Shown here one piece after another: positions 12,019-28,978 of a DNA stretch of 44,789 nucleotides; positions within the stretch are counted from its first letter, which is position 1; each line of letters opens with the position of its first letter. This DNA is from Vectrevirus PDP21P6. The position numbers and the translations under genes are program-made. Below the pieces are notes generated by a model. That model had not been told where the DNA came from. It made no database searches and saw only the letters and a program-made list of their open reading frames with translations. The DNA lies in the sequence record OZ035822.1; one strand, 5' to 3'.

Positions 12019-12080
12019 CCTTATCGGTGGCATCTTCTTAGGTGTCACCTATTAAGGTTTCTTTAACGGGAGTACACAAA

Positions 12081-14708
12081 ATGCAGGACTTATACGCTAT
12101 CCAGCTTCAGCTTGAAGAAGAGATGTTTAATGGTGGTATCCGTCGCTTTGAAGCAGACCAACAACGCCAGATTGCATCCGGTAATGAATCCGACACGGCA
12201 TGGAATCGCCGCTTATTGTCTGAGTTAATCGCACCGATGGCGGAAGGTATTCAGGCTTATAAGGAAGAGTATGAAGGCAAGCGCGGTCGTGCACCGCGTG
12301 CATTGGCTTTCATTAACTGCGTAGAAAATGAAGTGGCAGCGTATATCACGATGAAAATCGTAATGGATATGCTTAATAATGATGTGACTTTGCAGGCTAT
12401 AGCCATGAATGTAGCTGACCGCATAGAAGACCAAGTGCGCTTCAGCAAGCTGGAAGGACACGCCGCCAAATACTTTGAGAAAGTTAAGAAGTCACTTAAG
12501 GCAAGTAAGACTAAATCATATCGCCATGCGCACAACGTAGCGGTCGTGGCTGAGAAGTCAGTAGCTGACCGTGACGCTGATTTCTCTCGCTGGGAGGCGT
12601 GGCCTAAAGATACCTTGCTACAAATCGGTATGACCTTGCTAGAAATACTGGAGAATAGCGTATTCTTCAACGGGCAGCCTGTTTTCCTCCGCACCTTGCG
12701 CACTAACGGCGGCAAGCATGGCGTTTACTACTTACAGACTAGCGAACACGTGGGTGAATGGATAACTGCATTTAAAGAGCACGTAGCGCAATTAAGTCCT
12801 GCCTATGCGCCTTGCGTTATTCCTCCTCGTCCGTGGGTTTCTCCGTTTAATGGTGGCTTCCATACCGAGAAGGTGGCGAGTCGTATTCGTCTGGTTAAAG
12901 GAAACCGCGAGCACGTCCGCAAGCTGACCAAAAAGCAAATGCCAGCGGTTTACAAGGCTGTTAACGCTTTGCAGGCGACTAAGTGGCAGGTTAATAAAGA
13001 GGTTTTGCAGGTAGTAGAGGACGTTATCCGTCTCGACCTTGGTTATGGTGTGCCTTCCTTTAAACCACTCATCGACCGTGAGAACAAGCCAGCTAATCCA
13101 GTGCCGTTAGAGTTCCAGCACCTGCGAGGCCGTGAACTTAAAGAGATGCTAACGCCGGAACAATGGCAAGCCTTCATCAACTGGAAAGGCGAATGTACCA
13201 AGCTGTATACCGCTGAAACTAAGCGCGGCAGCAAGTCGGCGGCAACCGTTCGCATGGTCGGGCAGGCCCGTAAATACAGCCAGTTTGACGCAATATACTT
13301 CGTGTATGCACTGGATAGCCGTTCACGCGTTTATGCGCAATCTAGCACGCTCTCGCCGCAATCAAACGACCTAGGCAAGGCGTTACTGCGTTTCACCGAA
13401 GGGCAGCCTCTAAATAACTCTGAGGCGCTTAAGTGGTTTTTGGTGAACGGTGCTAATAACTGGGGTTGGGATAAGAAAACTTTCGACGTCCGCACCGCTA
13501 ACGTGTTAGATGGTGAATTCCAAGACATGTGCCGCGATATTGCAGCCGACCCGCTGACTTTTACTCAATGGGTGAATGCTGACTCCCCTTATGGCTTCCT
13601 TGCATGGTGCTTTGAATATGCGCGTTATCTGGATGCACTGGATGAAGGCACGCAAGACCAATTCATGACGCACCTACCCGTCCATCAAGACGGTAGTTGC
13701 TCTGGTATCCAGCACTATAGCGCGATGTTACGCGATGAAGTAGGTGCGAAAGCAGTAAACCTTAAGCCTTCTGACTCCCCTCAAGATATTTATGGCGCGG
13801 TTGCGCAGGTTGTTATCCAGAAGAATTACGCTTACATGAATGCAGATGATGCAGAGACGTTCACATCTGGAAGCGTCACACTTACAGGTGCAGAACTGCG
13901 TAGCATGGCTAGCGCATGGGATATGATAGGTATCACTCGCGGATTAACCAAAAAGCCGGTAATGACCTTGCCGTATGGCTCTACCCGCTTAACATGCCGT
14001 GAGTCAGTGATTGATTATATTGTTGATTTGGAAGAAAAAGAGGCACAAAGGGCTATTGCAGAAGGGCGGACGGCTAATCCGGTGCACCCTTTTGATAATG
14101 ACCGTAAAGATTATTTAACACCGGGCGCAGCTTATAACTACATGACCGCGTTAATTTGGCCTTCTATCTCTGAGGTTGTTAAAGCACCTATAGTGGCGAT
14201 GAAAATGATTCGCCAACTCGCACGATTCGCAGCTAAAAGAAACGAAGGGTTAGAATATCCCTTGCCTACTGGCTTTATCTTGCAACAAAAGATAATGGCT
14301 ACCGACATGCTACGCGTATCCACTTGCTTGATGGGTGAAATCAAGATGAGTCTACAGATTGAGACTGATGTAGTGGATGAAACGGCAATGATGGGCGCTG
14401 CCGCTCCCAACTTTGTTCACGGGCATGATGCTAGTCATCTCATCCTGACTGTATGTGACCTCGTTGATAAGGGCATTACATCCATCGCAGTCATCCATGA
14501 TTCCTTTGGTACTCATGCAGGCCGTACAGCAGACCTGCGGGATAGCTTAAGGGCAGAAATGGTGAAGATGTATCAAGGTCGTAATGCCCTGCAAAGCCTG
14601 TTAGATGAGCATGAAGAACGCTGGTTAGTAGACACCGGAATCCAAGTGCCAGAGCAAGGAGAATTTGACCTTAACGAAATCTTAGTATCTGACTATTGCT
14701 TCGCATAA
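12081..14708 (+). CDS. single-subunit DNA-directed RNA polymerase (T7/SP6 family)
   Basis: motifs [37 protein letters not shown] and C-terminal ...YCFA; ATG 12081; N-terminus [16 protein letters not shown] resembles SP6-type RNAPs from memory. Confidence 0.95.
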
Positions 14709-15383: not shown

Positions 15384-17371
15384 TGGCTATTATTAATAAC
15401 ATTCCGTGCCCTGCCTGCCAGAAGAATGGACACGATAAATCCGGCAATCATCTTATGATATTTGATGACGGTGCTGGCTACTGTAACCGTGGTCACTTCC
15501 ATGATAATGGCAAGCCTTACTACCATAAGCCCGAAGGTGGCATCGAGATAACAGAGTTACCTATCACTGGCAACATCAAATATACACCTTCTCAGTTTAA
15601 AGAGATGGAGAAGGAAGGGAAGATAAGCGACCCTAAGTTGCGCGCCATCGCACTTGGTGGTATGCGTATGAAAGACCGTTGGGAGGTCATGAATGAGCAA
15701 GAAAGGGCAGAGCAAGAAGCAGAGTGGAAACTTGATGTTGAATGGTTCCTCACGCTTAAGCGTAAGAATCTTGTTTCCCGACACATTCGCGGCGACATTT
15801 GCGCATTGTATGATGTACGTGTCGGACATGATGAAGAGGGTAGAGTCTCACGGCATTACTATCCACGCTTCGAGAAAGGTGAACTAGTAGGCGCTAAGTG
15901 TCGCACATTACCTAAAGACTTTAAGTTTGGTCATTTAGGTAAACTATTTGGTATGCAAGATCTTTTCGGTATGAATACTTTGTCTCACGTGTTAGACAAG
16001 GGAAGACGAAAGGATTGCTTGCTTATTGTGGGTGGGGAACTGGATGCACTAGCAGCGCAGCAGATGCTCCTTGATTCTGCCAAGGGTACTAAGTGGGAAG
16101 GGCAGCCTTACCATGTATGGTCTGTCAATAAGGGTGAATCTTGCCTTGAAGAAATTGTGCAGAACCGTGAGCACATAGCCCAATTCAAGAAGATTATTTG
16201 GGGCTTTGATGGGGATGAGGTAGGACAGAAGCAGAACCAACAAGCGGCTCGCCTGTTTCCCGGCAAATCCTACATCCTTGAATACCCTTCTGGTTGCAAA
16301 GATGCCAACAAGGCATTGATGGCTGGTAAGGCCAAAGAATTTGTGGATGCTTGGTTTAATGCAAAGTCATCTGATGAAGTCTTTGGTAGCCAGATTAAAT
16401 CTATCGCATCTCAAAGGGATAAGCTCAAGGCTGCACGTCCAGAACAAGGGCTGTCATGGCCTTGGCCTAAGCTAAACAAGGTAACGCTGGGTATCCGTAA
16501 GAATCAGCTTATCATTGTAGGTGCAGGCTCTGGTGTGGGTAAGACTGAGTTTCTCCGTGAAGTAGTTAAGCATCTCATTGAAGAACACGGTGAATCTGTA
16601 GGCATCATTTCTACAGAAGACCCGATGGTCAAAGTGTCCCGTGCTTTTATCGGCAAATGGATTGATAAGCGTATTGAGTTACCACCAACCAACGACCCGA
16701 AAGAAGATGGATACCGTGAGGTGTTCGACTATACCGAGGAAGAAGCTAACGCCGCCATTGATTATGTAGCCGATACAGGGAAGCTGTTTGTAGCTGACCT
16801 AGAAGGTGACTACTCGATGGAGAAGGTAGAGCAGACCTGCCTTGAGTTTGAGGCTATGGGTATTTCCAATATCATCATTGATAACTTAACGGGGATTAAA
16901 TTAGATGAGCGTGCTTTTGGTGGGAAGGTTGGTGCACTTGATGAATGCGTCAAGCGGATTGGTACTATCAAAGACCGACACCCAGTTACTATATTCCTTG
17001 TATCACACCTTACACGTCCTCCGGCAAACCGTACCCAACACGAAGAAGGTGGCGAGGTTATCCTTTCTGACTTCCGAGGCTCAGGGGCTATCGGATTCTG
17101 GGCATCTTACGCCTTGGGGATTGAGCGTAACACAAGAGCTGAAACGCTTGATGAAAGAACTACCACGTACATTTCATGTGTCAAAGACCGCGACCAAGGT
17201 ATCTACACCGGAACCAAGATCATGCTTAAGGGTGACATTCAGACCGGACGTTTGAGAGAACCTCAAGCCCGTACTAGGTCATTTGATACAGGCGAAGCAA
17301 GGCAACAAGAAGTGCCTGATTTACCGGACACTATAGAAGAGACTAACTTCGATGAAGAAAGTGAGTTCTGA
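15383..17371 (+). CDS. DNA primase/helicase (T7 gp4-like)
   Basis: N-terminal zinc ribbon CPACQKNGHDKSG...YCNRGHFH, Walker A GAGSGVGKT, acidic C-terminal tail ending ...NFDEESEF. Confidence 0.9.
   Translation: MAIINNIPCPACQKNGHDKSGNHLMIFDDGAGYCNRGHFHDNGKPYYHKPEGGIEITELPITGNIKYTPSQFKEMEKEGKISDPKLRAIALGGMRMKDRWEVMNEQERAEQEAEWKLDVEWFLTLKRKNLVSRHIRGDICALYDVRVGHDEEGRVSRHYYPRFEKGELVGAKCRTLPKDFKFGHLGKLFGMQDLFGMNTLSHVLDKGRRKDCLLIVGGELDALAAQQMLLDSAKGTKWEGQPYHVWSVNKGESCLEEIVQNREHIAQFKKIIWGFDGDEVGQKQNQQAARLFPGKSYILEYPSGCKDANKALMAGKAKEFVDAWFNAKSSDEVFGSQIKSIASQRDKLKAARPEQGLSWPWPKLNKVTLGIRKNQLIIVGAGSGVGKTEFLREVVKHLIEEHGESVGIISTEDPMVKVSRAFIGKWIDKRIELPPTNDPKEDGYREVFDYTEEEANAAIDYVADTGKLFVADLEGDYSMEKVEQTCLEFEAMGISNIIIDNLTGIKLDERAFGGKVGALDECVKRIGTIKDRHPVTIFLVSHLTRPPANRTQHEEGGEVILSDFRGSGAIGFWASYALGIERNTRAETLDERTTTYISCVKDRDQGIYTGTKIMLKGDIQTGRLREPQARTRSFDTGEARQQEVPDLPDTIEETNFDEESEF
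17319..17341 (+). promoter_or_regulatory. phage RNAP promoter embedded in 3' end of primase-helicase gene
   Basis: ATTTACCGGACACTATAGAAGAG, +1 G at 17336. Confidence 0.6.
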
Positions 17372-17388
17372 TTAGTGTATTTATCAGG

Positions 17389-17419
17389 GCTTGTCTCACA
17401 TGTGAGACAGGCTCTTATT
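17389..17419 (+). terminator. terminator-like hairpin containing palindrome copy 3
   Basis: GCTTGTCTCACATGTGAGACAGGC (core GTCTCACATGTGAGAC at 17393-17408) followed by TCTTATT. Confidence 0.55.
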
Positions 17420-17447
17420 AAGTACATTAAATAACTGGAGATTGATT

Positions 17448-18170
17448 ATGTATAAATTAGCATTGAATGTAGGTGATTATGTTCGTAACATCAATGAAGC
17501 CTCACGTCGTTATCGTTGCCGTGGTGTAGTGGATCATGTAAGTGAGAACATGTACCATGTAGAATATGATGATGGTATTAAGGCTTCTTATCACAAGAAA
17601 ACCGCACATAAATATCTTGAAAAGATTGTAGAGGTAAACAATCAATGTAAGTGCATACATGATGAGGTTTGCGATAAGTGTGCACGTCAGGTAGTTAAAG
17701 CCTTTACCTTTGCTCAACGTTATGGTTCTATGTATGGTGCTGGTCACAAGACCATTGCAGAAGCAGCTTGGAAGACATTGCAGTTTGAGCGTTCAAATGG
17801 ACGACGCACCACACTTAAGAAAGAGCGCCGCAATGTAATCACTGGTAAGACTCAAAGTGAGATGGTTAAGTTATGTGGTACTGCATTAGGCGTGTCACAG
17901 TTTAATACCCGTGCTCTAGGTAAATCTACAGGTCAAGCTATGGTGAAGATTGGCGAAGCTATGATGCACCCGAATGTACCTGTGCGAATCGTGGATGTTG
18001 ACCATGCAATCACAGAGCATGGTACACCACGCCGTGTAGCTAACAATCATTTTGCCGACACTATAGAAGACATTATCCGTAAGCAAGAGTTGAAAGGTCT
18101 TCACATCTTGAATGGTGAAGAATTATTGTACCTCCCTATCGTTACTGAAGAAACCTACGTGAATATCTAA
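17448..18170 (+). CDS. hypothetical protein
   Basis: ATG 17448 with GGAG RBS; 240 aa; Cys cluster CKCIHDEVCDKC. Confidence 0.55.
   Translation: MYKLALNVGDYVRNINEASRRYRCRGVVDHVSENMYHVEYDDGIKASYHKKTAHKYLEKIVEVNNQCKCIHDEVCDKCARQVVKAFTFAQRYGSMYGAGHKTIAEAAWKTLQFERSNGRRTTLKKERRNVITGKTQSEMVKLCGTALGVSQFNTRALGKSTGQAMVKIGEAMMHPNVPVRIVDVDHAITEHGTPRRVANNHFADTIEDIIRKQELKGLHILNGEELLYLPIVTEETYVNI
18059..18081 (+). promoter_or_regulatory. possible weak phage RNAP promoter inside coding sequence
   Basis: ATTTTGCCGACACTATAGAAGAC keeps the ACACTATAGAAG core but has 3 mismatches in the -9 to -13 region. Confidence 0.3.
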
Positions 18171-18180
18171 GGAGTTAATC

Positions 18181-18408
18181 ATGACTAAAGTATTAATCTA
18201 TAAAGCATACAATGAAAAGTGTAAACGCTATGCAGTTGTAGCGCCTAATGGGGTTAAACCTCTTGGTACAACAAAATGTACAGCACTTCAGCTTGCTAAA
18301 ATGAAAGCTGAAAACCAAATGCAGTATGCTGGCTCATGGACAGAGGCAGAGTTTCGTAAGGTAGTTGATGGTGTTGTTGGTAGTTTTATGGTGAAACATG
18401 CAGAATAA
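18181..18408 (+). CDS. hypothetical protein
   Basis: 75-aa ORF. Confidence 0.5.
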   Translation: MTKVLIYKAYNEKCKRYAVVAPNGVKPLGTTKCTALQLAKMKAENQMQYAGSWTEAEFRKVVDGVVGSFMVKHAE

Positions 18409-18583
18409 ACATAGCCTTAAAATGTTCAATGGTCATGAAGACCTGCAAGCACAAATTACTAACCAAGCCTTCCTGTTTGCACAGTTAACTATGGCTGAAG
18501 CAAAGAAGAATAGCCTGACGCGTGAACAGGTTATCAAGGAGGCAACTTGGGAGCCACACCAAGGTAAAATACATGGGCAATAA
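18398..18583 (+). CDS. hypothetical protein
   Basis: 61-aa ORF overlapping upstream stop by 11 nt. Confidence 0.4.
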   Translation: MQNKHSLKMFNGHEDLQAQITNQAFLFAQLTMAEAKKNSLTREQVIKEATWEPHQGKIHGQ

Positions 18584-18614
18584 ATTAACTGTAACACGCA
18601 GTCGATAAGTCAAG

Positions 18615-18645
18615 GGTTGTCTCACGTGTGAGACAGCCTTTTCAT
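18615..18645 (+). terminator. terminator-like hairpin containing palindrome copy 4
   Basis: GGTTGTCTCACGTGTGAGACAGCC (core GTCTCACGTGTGAGAC at 18619-18634) followed by CTTTTC. Confidence 0.55.
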
Positions 18646-18666
18646 CATATTGATTGGAGGTGCATT

Positions 18667-18774
18667 ATGCCACGTGATTATGATTCTGATTGGGACTACT
18701 ATGACTCAATGAATCCAAAACCCGAACGTTCAGATGATTACTACGAAACAGAGGCAATGTATGAAAACTATTGA
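18667..18774 (+). CDS. hypothetical acidic Tyr-rich peptide
   Basis: 35-aa ORF MPRDYDSDWDYYDSMNPKPERSDDYYETEAMYENY with GGAGGT RBS; overlaps DNAP start out of frame. Confidence 0.25.
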   Translation: MPRDYDSDWDYYDSMNPKPERSDDYYETEAMYENY

Positions 18775-21271
18775 TTGGAAGAAGGAAGCAGAAGGGCGCA
18801 TCCTAGTGATGGACGCCGAAGCTAAAGGTTTGCTTGATGCTATCCGCTATGGCCATCGTGAAGATGTACACATCATTTGCTGCATGGATTTGCTTACTAC
18901 AGAGGAGTTCTTATTCTTTGACCCATATGAGATGCGTGACCCTGAAGCAAGAGAACACCTGAAGGAATGGGAAGGACATCAAGATGGAACCTTGGTTGAC
19001 GGTGTTAACTTCCTGAAGCATTGTGAAGCTATTGTGTCACAGAACTTCCTAGGGTATGACGGCCTTCTCTTTGAGAAAGCATTCCCTGATATTTGGAAAG
19101 GCTTTAACTATACCGAGAAGCGCGGCAAGGGCAGACTCCGTGCTGACCTGTGTCCTATCCGTGTTGTCGACACACTGGTAATGAGTCGCCTGTTAAACCC
19201 CGACAGACGTCTTCCTCCGCAAGCTTATGCCAAGGGCATGGGTAACGTTGCCCCTCACTCAATTGAGGCGCACGGCATTCGTATAGGCCGCTATAAGCCG
19301 GAGAACGAAGACTGGTCTAAACTAACCGACCACATGGTTCATCGTGTACGTGAGGACGTGGCAATCGGGCGTGACCTGTTCCTCTGGCTATACAACGGAG
19401 AATGGACGGAGCACAAACGCCGTGGCGTGAACAAACGCACTGGCCTAGGGATTGAGACAGCCTTCCACATGGAGTCCATTGTGGCGCTGGAGATGAGCCG
19501 TCAGGCAGAGCGTGGATTCCGTCTGGATATAGACAAGGCGTTAGCGCGATGCAAAGAACTGGACGCTAAGATTGATGAGACAGTCGCAGCGTTCCGCCCT
19601 CACATGCCTATGCGTATCAAGTCTAAACCTTTTAAACCGGAAGAAAAGAATGAAGTATGCCAACGCGCAAATGAGTATGGAGCTAGCAACAATATACCTA
19701 CTGTCCTTGACCCCTCTCTCTTTCTTCACACAGAGAGACGAGGAGATCGCAAGACAATATGGAGTGTCACTACTAAGTCTGGTGATTGGTCAGCTAGTGT
19801 CAAGAAAGACTTTCCTCACCTTAGAGGAAACCGTAATGACACGCCAAGCATCAAGTGGATTGGCGCTTACTCGCCTGTTACTTTCGAAGAGATTCCCTTG
19901 GGTAACAGGGATACAGTTAAGCAAGTGCTCTATGATTATGGATGGAAAGGTGTTGAATTTAACGATACCGAGCAAGCGCATCTGGATGAGCACGGAGTAT
20001 TACCCAAACCTTGGAGTGGAAAGATAAATGAGAAGTCCCTTACTTTATGGCAGGAAAGAGCCGCACGTGAAGGTAAAACAGTCCCTGATTGGTGCTTGGG
20101 TATCGCTGAATGGTACATTCTCGTTAGCCGTCGCGGACAGATACTCAACCGTGGTGACGTTGAAGCCTTCGATCAAAAAGGGGCGTGGCCCTCGCAGGCT
20201 GGTGTACGAAAGTGTCGTGGCCTTGTACCTGTAGCATTTAACAAGGAGCTAGGAATCAATGCGCAGCAATACTACGAAAGGTATGGATGTTGGCCTACGT
20301 CTGACAAAGATGATGGAGAGTGGCGTGTGCCAGGCAATGCTGTTACTATTGGTACTAATACGTTTCGTATGCGTCATCGTAACATTGTTAATATTCCTTC
20401 CCGTGGGTTGTATCCTCTACGTGATTTATTCATAGCTAGCAAAGGTAAAATGATACTCGGATGTGATGGCGCGGGTCTTGAGCTTCGCATCTTAGCCCAT
20501 TTCATGGGTGATCCTGAGTATATTGATATTGTCTTGAATGGCGATATTCACTCACACAACCAAGCGAAGGCTGGATTGCCCTTACGTGACACTGCGAAAA
20601 CATTTATCTACGCTTTTCTCTACGGGTCTGGCATACCAAACCTTGCCGCTGTATGTGGCATGACTGAAGCACAGATGAAAGAGTGTGTCGCTCGCTTTGA
20701 AGTAGAGCTACCTCACTTAGCTAAGCTTAAGGAGGGAGTGGAATCTGCTGCTTCACAATTTGGGTACATGCACGCTGTAGATGGGCGCTGGGGTCGTGTA
20801 CGTGTTAGTAATGGTGAGATTAAGATTCACACCTGTCTTAATGTACTCCTCCAGATGACCGGTTCTCTCACTATGAAGTACTCAAAAGTGAAAGCACTAG
20901 CTACCATGCGTAAAGAGGGCGTGGCTCTTGATGCTAATGGTAATCCTGCTATGCTTGTCGACTATCACGATGAGTGGCAGATGGAGGTGCCTGAAGACGA
21001 AGTGTTAGAAATTCGCTACTCTATTCCTTCCTCTGAATGGAAAGAAGAAGAGAAAAGGCAGTATCGTGATAGCGAAGGACGCATGTGGTCTGCTCCTAAG
21101 GTGGTTGAAGGTAATCCAAAAGAAGATGAAGAGGTCACTGTACGTCGTCGTTATCATCGTGCTGGTGAAATCCTAGCTGAGTCTATTACTTGGGCAGGTG
21201 AATATCTTAAGCTTCGTATCCGTATGGATGGCGAATATATGCTTGGATATTCATGGGCTGAGACACACTGA
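18761..21271 (+). CDS. DNA polymerase (family A, T7 gp5-like)
   Basis: ATG 18761 with GAGG RBS; motifs DGAGLELRILAHFM, RDTAKTFIYAFLYGSG, YHDEWQMEV. Confidence 0.95.
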   Translation: MKTIDWKKEAEGRILVMDAEAKGLLDAIRYGHREDVHIICCMDLLTTEEFLFFDPYEMRDPEAREHLKEWEGHQDGTLVDGVNFLKHCEAIVSQNFLGYDGLLFEKAFPDIWKGFNYTEKRGKGRLRADLCPIRVVDTLVMSRLLNPDRRLPPQAYAKGMGNVAPHSIEAHGIRIGRYKPENEDWSKLTDHMVHRVREDVAIGRDLFLWLYNGEWTEHKRRGVNKRTGLGIETAFHMESIVALEMSRQAERGFRLDIDKALARCKELDAKIDETVAAFRPHMPMRIKSKPFKPEEKNEVCQRANEYGASNNIPTVLDPSLFLHTERRGDRKTIWSVTTKSGDWSASVKKDFPHLRGNRNDTPSIKWIGAYSPVTFEEIPLGNRDTVKQVLYDYGWKGVEFNDTEQAHLDEHGVLPKPWSGKINEKSLTLWQERAAREGKTVPDWCLGIAEWYILVSRRGQILNRGDVEAFDQKGAWPSQAGVRKCRGLVPVAFNKELGINAQQYYERYGCWPTSDKDDGEWRVPGNAVTIGTNTFRMRHRNIVNIPSRGLYPLRDLFIASKGKMILGCDGAGLELRILAHFMGDPEYIDIVLNGDIHSHNQAKAGLPLRDTAKTFIYAFLYGSGIPNLAAVCGMTEAQMKECVARFEVELPHLAKLKEGVESAASQFGYMHAVDGRWGRVRVSNGEIKIHTCLNVLLQMTGSLTMKYSKVKALATMRKEGVALDANGNPAMLVDYHDEWQMEVPEDEVLEIRYSIPSSEWKEEEKRQYRDSEGRMWSAPKVVEGNPKEDEEVTVRRRYHRAGEILAESITWAGEYLKLRIRMDGEYMLGYSWAETH

Positions 21272-21281
21272 GTTATACTCA

Positions 21282-21305
21282 AGGTCACTTACGAGTGGCC
21301 TTTAT
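21282..21305 (+). terminator. terminator-like hairpin after DNAP
   Basis: AGGTCACT-tacg-AGTGGCCT (one G-U pair) followed by TTTAT. Confidence 0.4.
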
Positions 21306-21329
21306 GGATAACTTAACTAAGGAAATATT

Positions 21330-21590
21330 ATGATTAAATACACTGCTTATCAGTTAACTAAAGATCGTAAGATAGGTGTTGAGGTTAAAGCTTGGAATGA
21401 AGGACACATCACTGTAGTCATAGAGTGTCGCCAAGATAATGGTATGATATTAAGAAGCTACCGTTGCTTCACCAAATTACGCTGCAAAGATTTAACTGAA
21501 GAATTATTCTTACGTTGTATTGTTGAATCTATTAAGCTTATTAGACCTTACGCTAAGAAAGTTGTAGGCAATGTCACAGTAGTACATTGA
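21330..21590 (+). CDS. hypothetical protein
   Basis: 86-aa ORF. Confidence 0.5.
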   Translation: MIKYTAYQLTKDRKIGVEVKAWNEGHITVVIECRQDNGMILRSYRCFTKLRCKDLTEELFLRCIVESIKLIRPYAKKVVGNVTVVH

Positions 21591-21612
21591 TTTACTGGAC
21601 ACTATAGAAGGA
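21590..21612 (+). promoter_or_regulatory. phage RNAP promoter
   Basis: ATTTACTGGACACTATAGAAGGA, +1 G at 21607, followed by AT-rich CCTAGG-containing leader. Confidence 0.7.
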
Positions 21613-21676
21613 AAGCCTAGGTAACCTAGGTTTATAAGGTAGTATAGGTAATTAAGTAAATATAGGAGATATAAAT

Positions 21677-22054
21677 ATGTCTATGGTAACTACTCTGGTA
21701 TTCGTGGCTCAATACTTTCGTGGCTTGGCGACTAAGTTCAAGAACAAAGCTATTAAGCATATTGAAAACCGCATCTCTGCAATAGAAGACGAGCAAGTCC
21801 AAGTAGAGGAACATCGTAGTTCTCAGATGATTGACCTGCATAACCGTCTGTACAAAGATCGTGATGAGATGCGTCACCGTCATGCGAAGGAAGTTGAAGA
21901 CATGCTTAACCGCCATGCGGAAGAACAAGCTAAGTTGGAAACTACTTTCCATGAGAATAAACGCAGCATTGCATTAGTGCATCAAGCTGCATCTGACAGT
22001 CTGAAGAAAGAGATTGTTATGCTGGAGATTGAACTGGACAACCTGACTAAGTAA
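21677..22054 (+). CDS. hypothetical predicted coiled-coil protein
   Basis: 125-aa ORF with AGGAG RBS. Confidence 0.5.
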   Translation: MSMVTTLVFVAQYFRGLATKFKNKAIKHIENRISAIEDEQVQVEEHRSSQMIDLHNRLYKDRDEMRHRHAKEVEDMLNRHAEEQAKLETTFHENKRSIALVHQAASDSLKKEIVMLEIELDNLTK

Positions 22055-22063
22055 GGAGTTATA

Positions 22064-22360
22064 ATGGAAGAAGTAATTCAAGCTAAACATGTAGGTATCA
22101 TCTTTCGCGATTTAGAGCAGCGTAAAGTTGCAGGTCACACTCGTCTGGCTAAAGAGGAAGACACAGCAATCACTACTGTGGAGCAAGCAGATGCCTATCG
22201 TGGTCCAGAGTTCACTGAAGGTGAAACTTGTCACCAATTGAGCCTGTCACTTTGTGACACTATGGCTAGTGTAAATGTGCAAGAAGTTGAAGACGGTGAA
22301 TGTGTTAGTTACATTTACCCTATCGATACTATTGCACGTATTAAGGTAGTTCATAAGTAA
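22064..22360 (+). CDS. hypothetical protein
   Basis: 98-aa ORF with AAGGAG RBS. Confidence 0.5.
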   Translation: MEEVIQAKHVGIIFRDLEQRKVAGHTRLAKEEDTAITTVEQADAYRGPEFTEGETCHQLSLSLCDTMASVNVQEVEDGECVSYIYPIDTIARIKVVHK

Positions 22361-22381
22361 TTACTGGACACTATAGAACAA
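22359..22381 (+). promoter_or_regulatory. phage RNAP promoter
   Basis: AATTACTGGACACTATAGAACAA, +1 G at 22376; followed by leader hairpin 22383-22402 and TGATTGTGTAGTG box. Confidence 0.65.
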
Positions 22382-22437
22382 TAGGTCGGCTTAGTTCGGC
22401 CTATGATTGTGTAGTGTAACAATAGGAGACTAAATAA

Positions 22438-23244
22438 ATGGCACGTGGTGATTTTGATTTTGGTGCTCAGGTTACTAAAGCTGAAGGTAAAGTATTTAAG
22501 AACCCTGAAGTGGGTGATCATGAAGCAGTAATCTCTGGCATCATTCATGTGGGTTCCTTCCAAGATATCTTTAAGAAAGGCAATACCACTGAAGTTAAGA
22601 AGCCAGCAAACTTTGTTCTTGTTAAGATTGTCCTGATGGGTGACGATGACAAGAATGAAGATGATTCTCGCATGGAACAATGGATGGCTGTGCCTCTGAA
22701 ATCTGGTGACAAGGCAACCTTGACTAAGTTCCTAAATGCAGTTGACCCTAAAGAATTGCTTGGTGGTTTCGATGACTTCATCGGTGAGTGCCTGACTGCA
22801 ACGATGGTTGGATCTGGTGACAAGAATGACGATGGCTCATTCAAGTATGTTAACTGGAAAGGCTTTGGTGGTATGCCGGAAAAGCTGAAGAAACTTGTTA
22901 TTGCTCAGGTTGAAGAAGAAGGTCTGTCTATGACAGGTCATATTACTTTCGACAAGCTGACCAAAGAAATCCTTGATGATATTCCTGCTAACTTGGTGCG
23001 TCAATACTTCCTTAATGAGACACCTCGTGGTAAGAACCTGTCTGTTGCTGGTTCTCACGTAGAAGAAATCATTAAAGCTGCTCGTGAAGAAGACCCTGAG
23101 TGGAAGAAGGCTAAGAAGAAAGATGACGAGGATGCTACTCCAGCTAATCGTAAGTCTCTGGATACTGGCGAGTCTATTCCACAGGAAGTGCCGGAGGCAG
23201 AGGACACTCCTGCACCGGAAATGGATGAAGACGCGGAATACTAA
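22438..23244 (+). CDS. hypothetical protein with acidic C-terminal tail (ssDNA-binding protein candidate)
   Basis: 268 aa, AGGAG RBS; C-terminus ...PAPEMDEDAEY resembles the acidic aromatic-terminated tail of T7 gp2.5. Confidence 0.4.
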   Translation: MARGDFDFGAQVTKAEGKVFKNPEVGDHEAVISGIIHVGSFQDIFKKGNTTEVKKPANFVLVKIVLMGDDDKNEDDSRMEQWMAVPLKSGDKATLTKFLNAVDPKELLGGFDDFIGECLTATMVGSGDKNDDGSFKYVNWKGFGGMPEKLKKLVIAQVEEEGLSMTGHITFDKLTKEILDDIPANLVRQYFLNETPRGKNLSVAGSHVEEIIKAAREEDPEWKKAKKKDDEDATPANRKSLDTGESIPQEVPEAEDTPAPEMDEDAEY

Positions 23245-23250
23245 GGAGGG

Positions 23251-23472
23251 ATGATGAAGGTACAAATCGTAACCCTGCACTGCAAGAAGGGCATTACCAC
23301 CCTTGGCGGAAACACTTTTCACTCCTTCTCTGAAGGGGAGACATACGCCGATCTGCACTACATCTGGCGCGATGGACAGCACGTGGTGAACTATAGCGAC
23401 CCAGCTACGGGGAAACGCCACGGCGTATCACTTCCGGCGCATGACATTGCTCAGGTGAACACAGTTTTATAA
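23251..23472 (+). CDS. hypothetical protein
   Basis: 73-aa ORF with AAGGAGGG RBS. Confidence 0.5.
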   Translation: MMKVQIVTLHCKKGITTLGGNTFHSFSEGETYADLHYIWRDGQHVVNYSDPATGKRHGVSLPAHDIAQVNTVL

Positions 23473-23473
23473 A

Positions 23474-23489
23474 GTCTCACGTGTGAGAC
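23474..23489 (+). repeat. 16-bp perfect palindrome GTCTCACGTGTGAGAC (copy 5)
   Basis: exact palindrome (CACGTG centre variant), 15 bp upstream of promoter 23505. Confidence 0.8.
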
Positions 23490-23504
23490 AACTCGGTGTC
23501 CTGT

Positions 23505-23527
23505 ATTTACTGGACACTATAGAAGAG
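23505..23527 (+). promoter_or_regulatory. phage RNAP promoter
   Basis: ATTTACTGGACACTATAGAAGAG, +1 G at 23522. Confidence 0.7.
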
Positions 23528-23577
23528 AAGAATTTTAATAGGCGATAATGCCACAACCAACAAAAGGAGAATTTAAT

Positions 23578-23949
23578 ATGTTCAAGATTGAAACTATCGT
23601 AAACCGTGTTGTTAAAGGTGCTGCTCTGGTATCCGTTGAGTCTTTCATTATCGTCGATGAAGCTGATCAACTGGTAGCTGGTACTAAGGCTTACGATACC
23701 CGTGAAGAAGCTCAGGCTAAGATTGACAGCATGGGTAACTTCGCTGCTGGTCTGGAGTTCGCTCGTGCTTGCTTCCCTGAGCAGGCTGACAAAGCTCAGA
23801 TTGGTAAGGCTAATATCGTAGCTGAATATCTGGATTGGGTTGCTGCTGGTAAACCAGTGAAAGAAGTTAAGGCTGCTGAAGAAGCTGAAGCTCCAGCAGA
23901 AGAAGTAGCTGCGCCGGAAACTCCGGTAAGCGAAGAGGAAGAGTTTTGA
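23578..23949 (+). CDS. hypothetical protein with acidic C-terminal tail
   Basis: ATG 23578 with AAGGAG RBS; 123 aa ending ...ETPVSEEEEF; own promoter and own terminator. Confidence 0.55.
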   Translation: MFKIETIVNRVVKGAALVSVESFIIVDEADQLVAGTKAYDTREEAQAKIDSMGNFAAGLEFARACFPEQADKAQIGKANIVAEYLDWVAAGKPVKEVKAAEEAEAPAEEVAAPETPVSEEEEF

Positions 23950-27673: not shown

Positions 27674-27847
27674 ATGGAAGGTAAGTTGTATAGAGGTTAC
27701 TTTGGTAACTTATATAAGATAAGTGCTCGCGGTTTTGTATTAGTATCTTATGATGAAGGTGCAATGTGGCACTTAAGTTCCTATGGTTCTGACTTAGCAT
27801 TCTTTAAAGATGCAATATACTCTGGTGCTGTGAGGGTAGTGGAATGA
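27674..27847 (+). CDS. hypothetical protein
   Basis: 57-aa ORF with GAGGAT RBS, stop overlaps ligase start. Confidence 0.4.
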   Translation: MEGKLYRGYFGNLYKISARGFVLVSYDEGAMWHLSSYGSDLAFFKDAIYSGAVRVVE

Positions 27848-28791
27848 ACATCTTCCAATTTCTAGGTCTTCCAGAAGAACACCGCAATCACCCGTTCATG
27901 CTGGTGAAACATCGCGGTGAAGTTCCTGAGAAGAAATTAACCTTTCCATGTTATGCACAGGTGAAACGAGATGGAATATTCAGTGCTGTTGTGGTGCGTA
28001 ATGATGGTGTTGTTGCCATCTTTGGTCGTACTGGTAAGAAGCTCGCAAATGTTGAAGCCTTGGAAAAGACATTTAGTGTATTTCCTGTCGGGTTGTATCT
28101 TGGTGAGTTGCAATCTATGGCTGTTGATGTTTATCTTGAAGCTCTGTCAGGAGTGGTAAACCCTAATCGTACAGAGCCACTTGACTTCATAGGCCAGCAG
28201 ATTAAAGACAACCTGTATATCGACTTCTTCGATATGTTAACTATTAAGGCATTCCATGATGGATTCACTGATGTTTCTTATCTCAAACGTTACGATGCTT
28301 TACATCGTCGCATCGGCGCTCATCTTAGCGGGTACAACGCTATCCTTCCTATTACTCCTTGCCATAATGAGCGAGAAGTTGAAGCGTTTGCGCAAGAGCA
28401 GATAGACGCAGGCCGAGAGGGTGCTGTATTCAAACTGGACTGCGATTATGAAGCAGGCCACAAAGGTTATCGTCAGACTAAAGAAGTCCGTAAGGTAACT
28501 TATGACCTTACTTGTATTGGCTTTGAAGAAGGTAAAGGTAAGTACAAAGGTAAGGTAGCTAACCTCATTTTCAAATGGAAAGGAGGCAAGACAATCAAAG
28601 CTATGTTAGGTAAAGGGTGGACTCATGCAGATGCAGAACAGATGTTCCACGACATTAAACATGGTGGACGATTGAATGTCATTGGTAAAATCTTTGAAGT
28701 CAAAGGTCTTCAGGATTCAAGCAAGGGCAACATTCGTCTGCCCAAAGCGGGAGAATTAAGACATGACAAAGATGAACCAGATTTCTTTTGA
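27844..28791 (+). CDS. ATP-dependent DNA ligase
   Basis: adenylation motif I KRDG in CYAQVKRDGIFSAVV; 315 aa. Confidence 0.85.
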   Translation: MNIFQFLGLPEEHRNHPFMLVKHRGEVPEKKLTFPCYAQVKRDGIFSAVVVRNDGVVAIFGRTGKKLANVEALEKTFSVFPVGLYLGELQSMAVDVYLEALSGVVNPNRTEPLDFIGQQIKDNLYIDFFDMLTIKAFHDGFTDVSYLKRYDALHRRIGAHLSGYNAILPITPCHNEREVEAFAQEQIDAGREGAVFKLDCDYEAGHKGYRQTKEVRKVTYDLTCIGFEEGKGKYKGKVANLIFKWKGGKTIKAMLGKGWTHADAEQMFHDIKHGGRLNVIGKIFEVKGLQDSSKGNIRLPKAGELRHDKDEPDFF

Positions 28792-28978
28792 TAGCATGAA
28801 GGCAACTCGTGCAGTTGAGGTAGCAGAAGCTATCTTTGAAACTTTATCCTGTGGCATGGAAGTGCCATATACTTTACTTGCTGATGCAGAAGAACTTGGT
28901 CTTTCTGTAGAAGCTATCCAAGAGAAGGTTGACGAATTATATGGTACAGACGAAGAAGAAACCGACGATTTCATTTGA
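28763..28978 (+). CDS. hypothetical acidic protein
   Basis: 71-aa acidic ORF with GGGAG RBS; overlaps ligase 3' end. Confidence 0.35.
   Translation: MTKMNQISFDSMKATRAVEVAEAIFETLSCGMEVPYTLLADAEELGLSVEAIQEKVDELYGTDEEETDDFI

Follow-up and report, generated by a model that had tools for sequence, protein, structure and literature searches.

The replication region of the phage Vectrevirus PDP21P6 (sequence record OZ035822.1, a stretch of 44,789 nucleotides that is called the window here) encodes three proteins with acidic C-terminal tails closed by an aromatic residue: the primase-helicase, a protein of 268 amino acids (aa) and a protein of 123 aa. Our analysis suggests that the phage probably builds a T7-like replisome, in which flexible acidic tails of the type [D/E]-[F/Y]-COOH tether the partners and the 268-aa protein acts as the single-stranded DNA (ssDNA)-binding protein (SSB). 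The window is affiliated with Vectrevirus (Autographiviridae, Molineuxvirinae, SP6 group). Phages of the SP6, K1E and K1-5 type, from which SP6 RNA polymerase (RNAP) comes, are candidates for therapy, yet they have no annotated SSB.

Three acidic tails and their conservation

The three C-termini were pointed out in an earlier note on this DNA and are all present exactly as claimed there. The primase-helicase ends in …IEETNFDEESEF (tip …NFDEESEF), the 268-aa protein in …PAPEMDEDAEY and the 123-aa protein in …PVSEEEEF, with the end of its open reading frame (ORF) at 23949. We screened 55 non-overlapping plus-strand ORFs of the window for at least 8 Asp/Glu and no Lys/Arg in the last 20 residues together with an aromatic last residue, and only these three proteins passed. 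Four proteins of the window have acidic tails and three of the four end in an aromatic residue, for which we estimate a chance probability of p ~0.01 within one genome (background of 12-16% aromatic termini); such a trio in a single genome is only moderately improbable by chance. A looser control screen of T7 (at least 6 Asp/Glu and at most 1 Lys/Arg in the last 20 residues) picked gp2.5 and gp4, the experimentally established replisome tails, and the terminase gp19. This T7 large terminase (gene 19, L144) has an acidic stretch and a terminal aromatic residue, …SEDDEGYGTSFIEW.

Conservation is stronger evidence for the tails than the single-genome statistic. The 268-aa family was traced to 34% identity in the protein database and to ~30% identity in GenBank phages, the latter relatives belonging to phages of Vibrio, Pseudomonas, Marinomonas, Aeromonas, Pectobacterium and Erwinia; 43 of 46 homologs end in Tyr or Phe and a further two in …DFS. 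The 123-aa protein and its homologs (the small family below) end in Phe or Tyr in 120/120 close homologs and 40/48 non-redundant ones, behind a linker of hypervariable sequence and length. The helicases carry Phe or Tyr within the last three residues in all 18 lineages and at the very end in 16. The SP6 helicase ORF (L015) ends in …NTQEFNG, compared with …NTQEF in close relatives, either by a two-residue extension past the aromatic residue or by a sequence difference or error.

We examined gene order in 28 IMG/VR loci, two metagenomic contigs and six GenBank genomes, the GenBank phages being sampled across Molineuxvirinae, Colwellvirinae and Gajwadongvirus. The 268-aa and small genes were always near neighbours, and the helicase always carried a related tail. 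The tail trio was found in the 28 IMG/VR loci, in both contigs and in five of the six GenBank phages; in the sixth, Pseudomonas phage Achelous, two tails have extra residues. The ends change in concert (Table 1): all three proteins end in Tyr in L030-L032 and in E-E-F in L026, and the helicase and the 268-like protein of L003 both have Phe followed by one extra residue.

Table 1. C-terminal ends of the three tail-bearing proteins by genome or locus
Genome or locus	Helicase	268-aa family	Small family
K1E-like	…ESEF	…DAEY	…EEEF
L030-L032	…ESEY	…GAEY	…AEEY
L026	…IEEF	…DEEF	…EEEF
L003	…EDFG	…EDFS	no tail
Pseudomonas phage Achelous	…EEKQY	…QEFGE	…ESFEG

The tip profile is D-E-E-[QS]-E-F for the helicases of 18 lineages and A-P-x-[ML]-D-E-x-x-E-[YF] for the 268-aa family, with a hydrophobic residue at -6 in 50/50 sequences and an acidic one at -1 in 49/50. 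The small proteins have E-E-E-[TE]-F (Glu at -2 in 88%, acidic at -1 in only 36%), and judging from sequence their tip is of the same class as the other two with a distinct signature. The conservation and co-variation of the tails in these three members of the replication module support that they behave like functional docking motifs. The three very probably share a common partner.

A tail module shared by the helicase and the 268-aa protein

A single gap suffices to align the final 34 residues of the helicase with the final 33 of the 268-aa protein (ARTRSFDTGEARQQEVPDLPDTIEETNFDEESEF / ANRKSLDTGESIPQEVPEAEDT-PAPEMDEDAEY), and both follow the pattern K-S-[FL]-D-T-G…Q-E-V-P…D-T…[FM]-D-E-x-x-E-[FY]. 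The BLOSUM62 score of this alignment is 69, compared with 25.2 ± 5.1 for 5000 composition-preserving shuffles, none of which reached it (z 8.5). The tails of T7 gp4 and gp2.5 gave z 0.4, being alike in composition only, and the small protein has only the tip in common with the two modules (z 2.9 and 0.8). Across 18 lineages, the similarity between helicase and 268-aa tails was greater within than between genomes (permutation p 0.0002, and still p 0.001 after the last six residues were removed), with p-values that overstate independence, the lineages being phylogenetically related.

Gene conversion was considered as the source of the common tail and rejected: of the 15 identical residues only 8 are encoded by the same codon, and the nucleotide sequences are 60% identical, suggesting that the similarity is held at the protein level and does not reflect recent DNA copying. 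A stretch like the [FL]DTG…VP element was also noticed at the C-terminus of the RNAP (gene 12042-14708); as a further copy of the module it is probably a coincidence, since we estimate ~2 chance matches.

These results bear on the view that the tails are a compositional coincidence without a common partner, which we find very improbable. Early and middle proteins of phages commonly have acidic C-termini of low complexity; in the window a 71-aa ORF, the DNA ligase and a 48-aa ORF are also acidic-ended, and the T7 terminase passes the screen as well. However, the near-miss tails are not kept in relatives, while the three are kept to ~30% identity with their terminal residue co-varying and their tips fixed behind hypervariable linkers, and the module of the helicase and the 268-aa protein is not compositional.

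The ligase (27844-28791) ends in …HDKDEPDFF, a near-miss in the screen, and its aromatic terminus (PDVF, PDVY, PDF, PDY) is kept in many relatives and lost in L026, L027 and L030-L032; it is probably not part of the tail system. The 71-aa ORF (28763-28978) has the acidic tail …YGTDEEETDDFI with 9 Asp/Glu in the last 20 residues and ends in …TDDFI; its relatives retain the acidity and not the ending. Both were rejected as fourth and fifth tail clients, their termini not being conserved.

The 268-aa protein as the putative SSB

The earlier note had proposed that either the 268-aa or the 123-aa protein is the SSB and had suggested structure prediction for an oligonucleotide/oligosaccharide-binding (OB) fold. 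The AlphaFold2 model of the 268-aa protein, built on a 22-sequence alignment, does have an OB-fold core of β1-β3/α/β4-β5 topology, followed by a helical domain (residues 146-228). The core (residues 19-228) is confident, with a predicted local distance difference test (pLDDT) score of 80-93; pLDDT is below 50 at residues 1-18 and 229-258 and averages ~51 at 259-268. The last 40 residues have a net charge of -13. The N-terminal peptide MAR-x-FDFGA is conserved (F6, G9 and A10 are invariant in the family) and is disordered in the model, with pLDDT <50.

Structural neighbours of the model are the ssDNA binders PrgE, RPA, LEF-3 and Pot1 and phage proteins of the DUF669 type, and the core resembles monomeric, filament-forming ssDNA binders. 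Foldseek detected 56 significant matches in BFVD (predicted viral structures), all of them from phages and including phiKMV-type, Ralstonia, Acinetobacter and Xp10 proteins; two DUF669-annotated proteins are among them (E 8.5e-5 and 2.8e-4). DUF669 proteins, which carry an acidic tail at the C-terminus and are present in viruses that lack other SSBs, have been argued to be diverged OB-fold SSBs, and the characterised N4 SSB was linked to them (Kazlauskas et al. 2016, PMC4889955). The DUF669 protein of HK620 (HkaK) is a real SSB, of which the last six residues, NDYPPF, recruit Sak4 (Hutinet et al. 2018, PMC5928155).

No SSB is present among 62 annotated K1E features, and no SSB-family Pfam match was found among the scanned ORFs of the replication region of the window. 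Orf17 of Pectobacterium phage PP99 (L059 4173-4643), annotated as putative ssDNA binding protein, was considered as a rival SSB and rejected, being a YpsA/SLOG protein without counterpart in the window; it matches the Pfam YpsA/SLOG and DprA families and its annotation is likely misleading. Literature searches, which did not include the original SP6 genome paper, found no SSB data on SP6-type phages. Because of the OB-fold core, the disordered acidic tail, its own promoter and the absence of another SSB in the genome, the 268-aa protein is, according to the model, most likely the SSB of the phage, of the PrgE/DUF669 structural type and not a homolog of gp2.5. The proposal that one of the two proteins is the SSB is thus supported for the 268-aa protein.

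The 123-aa protein

The 123-aa protein has its own strong promoter, an acidic Phe-terminated tail and a place within the replication/recombination module, as an SSB might have. That it, and not the 268-aa protein, binds ssDNA is nevertheless hardly credible. In its model (39-sequence alignment, core pLDDT ~90) a β-hairpin (3-13, 16-26) and, after it, two long helices (42-65, 71-89) make up a small α/β core, without OB-fold structural neighbours; the core is net acidic (-4, isoelectric point 4.7), and the tail is missing in some homologs. The confident helical-hairpin model and the acidic core thus argue against the 123-aa alternative of the earlier note. The C-terminal part is a disordered linker rich in Ala, Glu, Pro and Val, acidic and variable, which leads to the E-E-E-x-F tip. 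The protein has no sequence match in Pfam, NCBIfam or PDB. A relationship to T7 gp5.9, which has the same position upstream of the exonuclease gene, was considered and dropped, no similarity being found.

Because the gene has a perfect promoter and the 268-aa gene as a constant neighbour, and the tip is conserved behind a drifting linker, we argue from the sequence that the product may be an accessory protein of high abundance that cooperates with the SSB candidate by means of a similar tail.

The DNA polymerase as presumed receptor

The family A DNA polymerase of the window has 32% identity to T7 gp5 in the palm and fingers. In T7, the gp4 and gp2.5 tails dock on basic patches of gp5, notably K587/K589/R590/R591, and a DTDF peptide is contained in PDB 6P7E (PMC12339929). 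By analogy, the tails would dock on the phage DNA polymerase. The segment with the T7 front basic patch (K587-R591) is deleted in 8/8 aligned DNA polymerases of SP6-type phages, so the receiving surface cannot be that patch. Flanking the deletion, the clade motif DG-R-WG-R-I-R-[KR] is aligned with T7 R599/H602/R604; in the polymerase of the window it is R685-W-G-R688-V-R690, with R685 being Lys or Arg in 7/8 of these polymerases and R688 and R690 conserved in 8/8. T7 R599 has been reported to contact the gp2.5 tail in simulations (PMC12339929), and we suggest R685/R688/R690 as a candidate docking surface. In place of the thioredoxin-binding domain the polymerase has a longer thumb insertion with some conserved Lys/Arg, which aligns poorly to that domain. 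Literature searches for thioredoxin (trxA) dependence of SP6-type phages found nothing.

A proposed replisome and its alternatives

In the proposed replisome, the 268-aa protein as SSB would coat the lagging-strand ssDNA. Its tail would be folded back onto its own DNA-binding groove in the free protein and, upon DNA binding, be offered to a basic surface on the phage DNA polymerase, while the same module on the helicase would keep the polymerase at the fork. The receiving surface may be the conserved R-x-x-R-x-R motif beside the deleted patch or the enlarged thumb insertion. As a third client, with the tip Glu at -2 and not at -1, the 123-aa protein would most likely be an accessory factor, which either competes for the same docking site or the SSB groove or is recruited through one of them.

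The comparison with T7 had been made in the earlier note; the replisome logic is supported by the conserved and co-varying tails, and the ancestry of the SSB is not, the 268-aa protein not being homologous to gp2.5. Both phages belong to the Autographiviridae and have a polymerase of family A and a helicase of the gp4 type, and in both the helicase and the SSB or OB-fold SSB candidate have an acidic, aromatic-ended tail with an acidic residue at -1 (gp4 …DWSNDTDF, gp2.5 …EEADEDGDF). The dedicated promoter ahead of the 268-aa gene is comparable to φ2.5 ahead of T7 gene 2.5. In contrast to T7, the SSB candidate is unrelated to gp2.5, the front patch of gp5 is deleted, the helicase and SSB tails have a common 34-aa module instead of a similar composition only, and there is a third tail bearer that is not an SSB. 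The T7 tail-tethering device thus appears either retained or invented anew here, combined with an SSB that is not homologous and a polymerase without the T7 patch; the common module and the third tail-bearing protein are new. We found no description of this tail system in the literature searched, which did not extend to the original SP6 and K1-5 genome papers.

Several observations weigh against the proposed replisome. Besides the deleted polymerase patch, the tip signature of the small protein is unlike those of the other two, a few distant small-protein homologs have no tail, and the concerted end changes may reflect few events, the lineages sharing ancestry, which also tempers the permutation tests. 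The OB part of the 268-aa model is net acidic (-6); T7 gp2.5 is likewise an acidic protein. Profile comparison of the 268-aa family by hhalign gave no homology to T7 gp2.5 (probability at most 0.1%) and non-significant values for the N4 SSB family (0.17-0.3%) and for the HK620 SSB (0.1%, the relatives scan for the latter having returned only sequences at least 87% identical, useless for a profile); the comparison with the SSB of Lactobacillus phage A2 was also non-significant. Pfam gave no match for 22 + 11 family members, a weak test of DUF669 membership as the Pfam copy used misses the HK620 SSB itself, and a PDB sequence search with the 268-aa protein had no match. The only sequence-level relative of the family is NCBIfam NF046043 (NGO0469 family), named phage replication initiation protein.

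The last match suggests another function for the 268-aa protein, initiation of replication instead of the SSB role, with the tail recruiting the helicase or the polymerase to an origin. NF046043 matches 18 of 22 family members (best E 2.5e-13), as well as the homologs in Tola, PP99, A318, CPG1g and Achelous, in the latter over approximately the N-terminal 130 residues. We consider this function distinctly unlikely. The scores (18.9 bits for the protein of the window, and 43-44 for the best listed relatives) never reach the cutoff of 75 bits, the predicted fold is an OB fold with ssDNA-binding neighbours, and an initiator would leave the genome without an SSB. Moreover, phages of the T7 group initiate replication by RNAP transcription at the origin. 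The name of the NGO0469 family goes back to weak BLAST matches (26% over 109 aa to a nanovirus Rep, 32% over 87 aa to a primase) in a 2007 in-silico prophage annotation without experiment (PMC1931599). From the sequence comparison, the two families are homologous but not equivalogs; as NF046043 is homologous to an OB-fold, SSB-like phage family, its name may be wrong, and the label looks unfounded.

The 268-aa protein as a DUF669/N4-type SSB has in its favour the highly diverged OB fold, the acidic aromatic-ended tail, a genome otherwise without SSB and the Foldseek matches to DUF669 proteins (E ~1e-4). It differs by the lack of a Pfam DUF669 match or profile similarity to the HK620, N4 and A2 SSBs, by the extra helical domain and by the absence of an annotated Sak4 partner, frequent and not obligatory, in the K1E reference genome; the C-terminus of the N4 SSB itself is basic. 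PrgE of plasmid pCF10 (PDB 8S4S) also combines an OB fold with extra helices; it coats ssDNA as monomers lined up like beads on a thread, with its N-terminal tail touching the next monomer (PMC11137577). By this analogy, the disordered FDFGA peptide of the 268-aa protein is a possible inter-subunit arm. PrgE differs in having 15% sequence identity to the 268-aa protein, 144 aa and no long acidic aromatic-ended tail, and it belongs to a conjugative plasmid, whose transfer does not depend on it.

E. coli SSB is an interaction hub, the terminal Phe of which docks in basic/hydrophobic pockets of many partners, and like the 268-aa protein it has a disordered linker and an acidic tip. Its C-terminal tip is …PPMDFDDDIPF. 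Mimicry of this host tip, by which the tails would recruit or sequester χ of Pol III, RecQ, ExoI, PriA and RecO with the 123-aa protein as a decoy, seems unlikely. In its favour, each of the three acidic tips closes with F/Y-COOH, the 268-aa tip A-P-x-M-D-E-D-x-E-Y shares the P-x-M-D element with the host tail, the tails of DUF669-type phage SSBs (HK620 NDYPPF, A2 …SDEDLPF) resemble the host tip, and the small protein is without DNA-binding features. On the other hand, the helicase bears the module of the SSB candidate, which fits a contact within the replisome as in T7 and not mimicry; the phage has genes of its own for polymerase, helicase-primase, ligase and nucleases; and the signature of Glu at -1 and Gln/Ser at -2, with an E-[FY] end, differs from I-P-F. 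Further differences from E. coli SSB are that the 268-aa OB domain is not of the homotetrameric SSB family (no Pfam SSB match) and that the same tail is also found on the helicase and on a small non-DNA-binding protein.

A possible and somewhat doubtful extension of the T7-like replisome is a tail code with three clients in SP6-type Autographiviridae, in which the 123-aa protein with its variant tip would be a hub regulator. The bipartite module of the helicase and SSB, composed of the K-S-[FL]-D-T-G…Q-E-V-P element and the [ML/F]-D-E-x-x-E-[FY] tip, would then bind a polymerase surface unrelated to the T7 basic patch, and the 123-aa protein could substitute for thioredoxin-type processivity or act as a switch that displaces the SSB or helicase tails. 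If so, it would be an abundantly expressed component of novel fold without counterpart in the T7 paradigm.

Locus, promoters and neighbouring genes

The region of 9 kb around the tail genes has 90-94% identity to Vectrevirus genomes (K1E, K1-5-like), and the gene order is that of K1E: RNAP, gp9, gp13, gp16, gp17, gp18, 5'-3' exonuclease and endonuclease VII (Table 2). The primase-helicase matches PHROG 239 primase/helicase (E 1.6e-188). The 268-aa and 123-aa proteins are annotated as hypothetical, and their PHROG families are without assigned function; in a sample of 60 out of 215 matching phage records, 57 are annotated, of which 56 call the member of the 268-aa family a hypothetical protein, and the SP6 record for the homolog gives the gene number 16 only. 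The neighbourhood of the 268-aa gene consists of small hypothetical genes, the 123-aa gene and the genes for the 5'-3' exonuclease and endonuclease VII. The true start of the small gene is the ATG at 23578 with AAGGAG 8 nt upstream, and not the start of a 133-aa ORF at 23548.

Table 2. Coordinates of the tail-bearing genes, the polymerase and associated elements in the window
Feature	Position	Strand	Remarks
Primase-helicase, K1E gp9 homolog, 662 aa	15383..17371	+	Pfam DnaB_C + Toprim_2
Helicase C-terminal tail module, 34 aa	17267..17368	+	ARTRSFDTGEARQQEVPDLPDTIEETNFDEESEF
Family A DNA polymerase, K1E gp13 homolog, 845 aa	18734..21271	+	Pfam DNA_pol_A
Basic motif R685-W-G-R688-V-R690 of the polymerase	20786..20803	+	clade-conserved
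SP6-type promoter core, directly upstream of the 268-aa gene	22366..22379	+	GGACACTATAGAAC, 1 mismatch to consensus
268-aa protein, K1E gp16 / SP6 gene 16 homolog, phrog_862	22438..23244	+	predicted OB-fold ssDNA-binding protein
N-terminal peptide MAR-x-FDFGA… of the 268-aa protein	22438..22491	+	conserved, disordered in model
268-aa protein C-terminal tail module	23143..23241	+	ANRKSLDTGESIPQEVPEAEDTPAPEMDEDAEY
SP6-type promoter core, directly upstream of the 123-aa gene	23512..23525	+	perfect GGACACTATAGAAG
123-aa protein, K1E gp18 / SP6 gene 20 homolog, phrog_4429	23578..23949	+	

With up to 3 mismatches allowed, the SP6-type promoter core GGACACTATAGAAG has 16 matches in the window, compared with 4.3 expected, all of them on the plus strand. 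The sites include 128, 2665, 4340, 17326, 21597, 23512 and 32273 plus weaker ones, and the genes that have a perfect core ahead of them include the small tail-bearing gene and the major capsid gene. The promoter of the 123-aa gene in full context is ATTTACTGGACACTATAGAAGAG. Between gene 17 and this promoter lies a perfect palindrome of 16 bp, GTCTCACGTGTGAGAC (23474-23489), with a possible role as terminator stem, RNA-processing site or binding site.

A 48-aa ORF (18628-18774) overlaps the start of the polymerase gene and has the acidic, tyrosine-rich end …YYETEAMYENY. In Erwinia phage phiEa100 (L060 4703-7699) the DNA polymerase gene is divided into two coding sequences with an ORF between them, and genes for HNH endonucleases are located further upstream and just downstream of the split gene.

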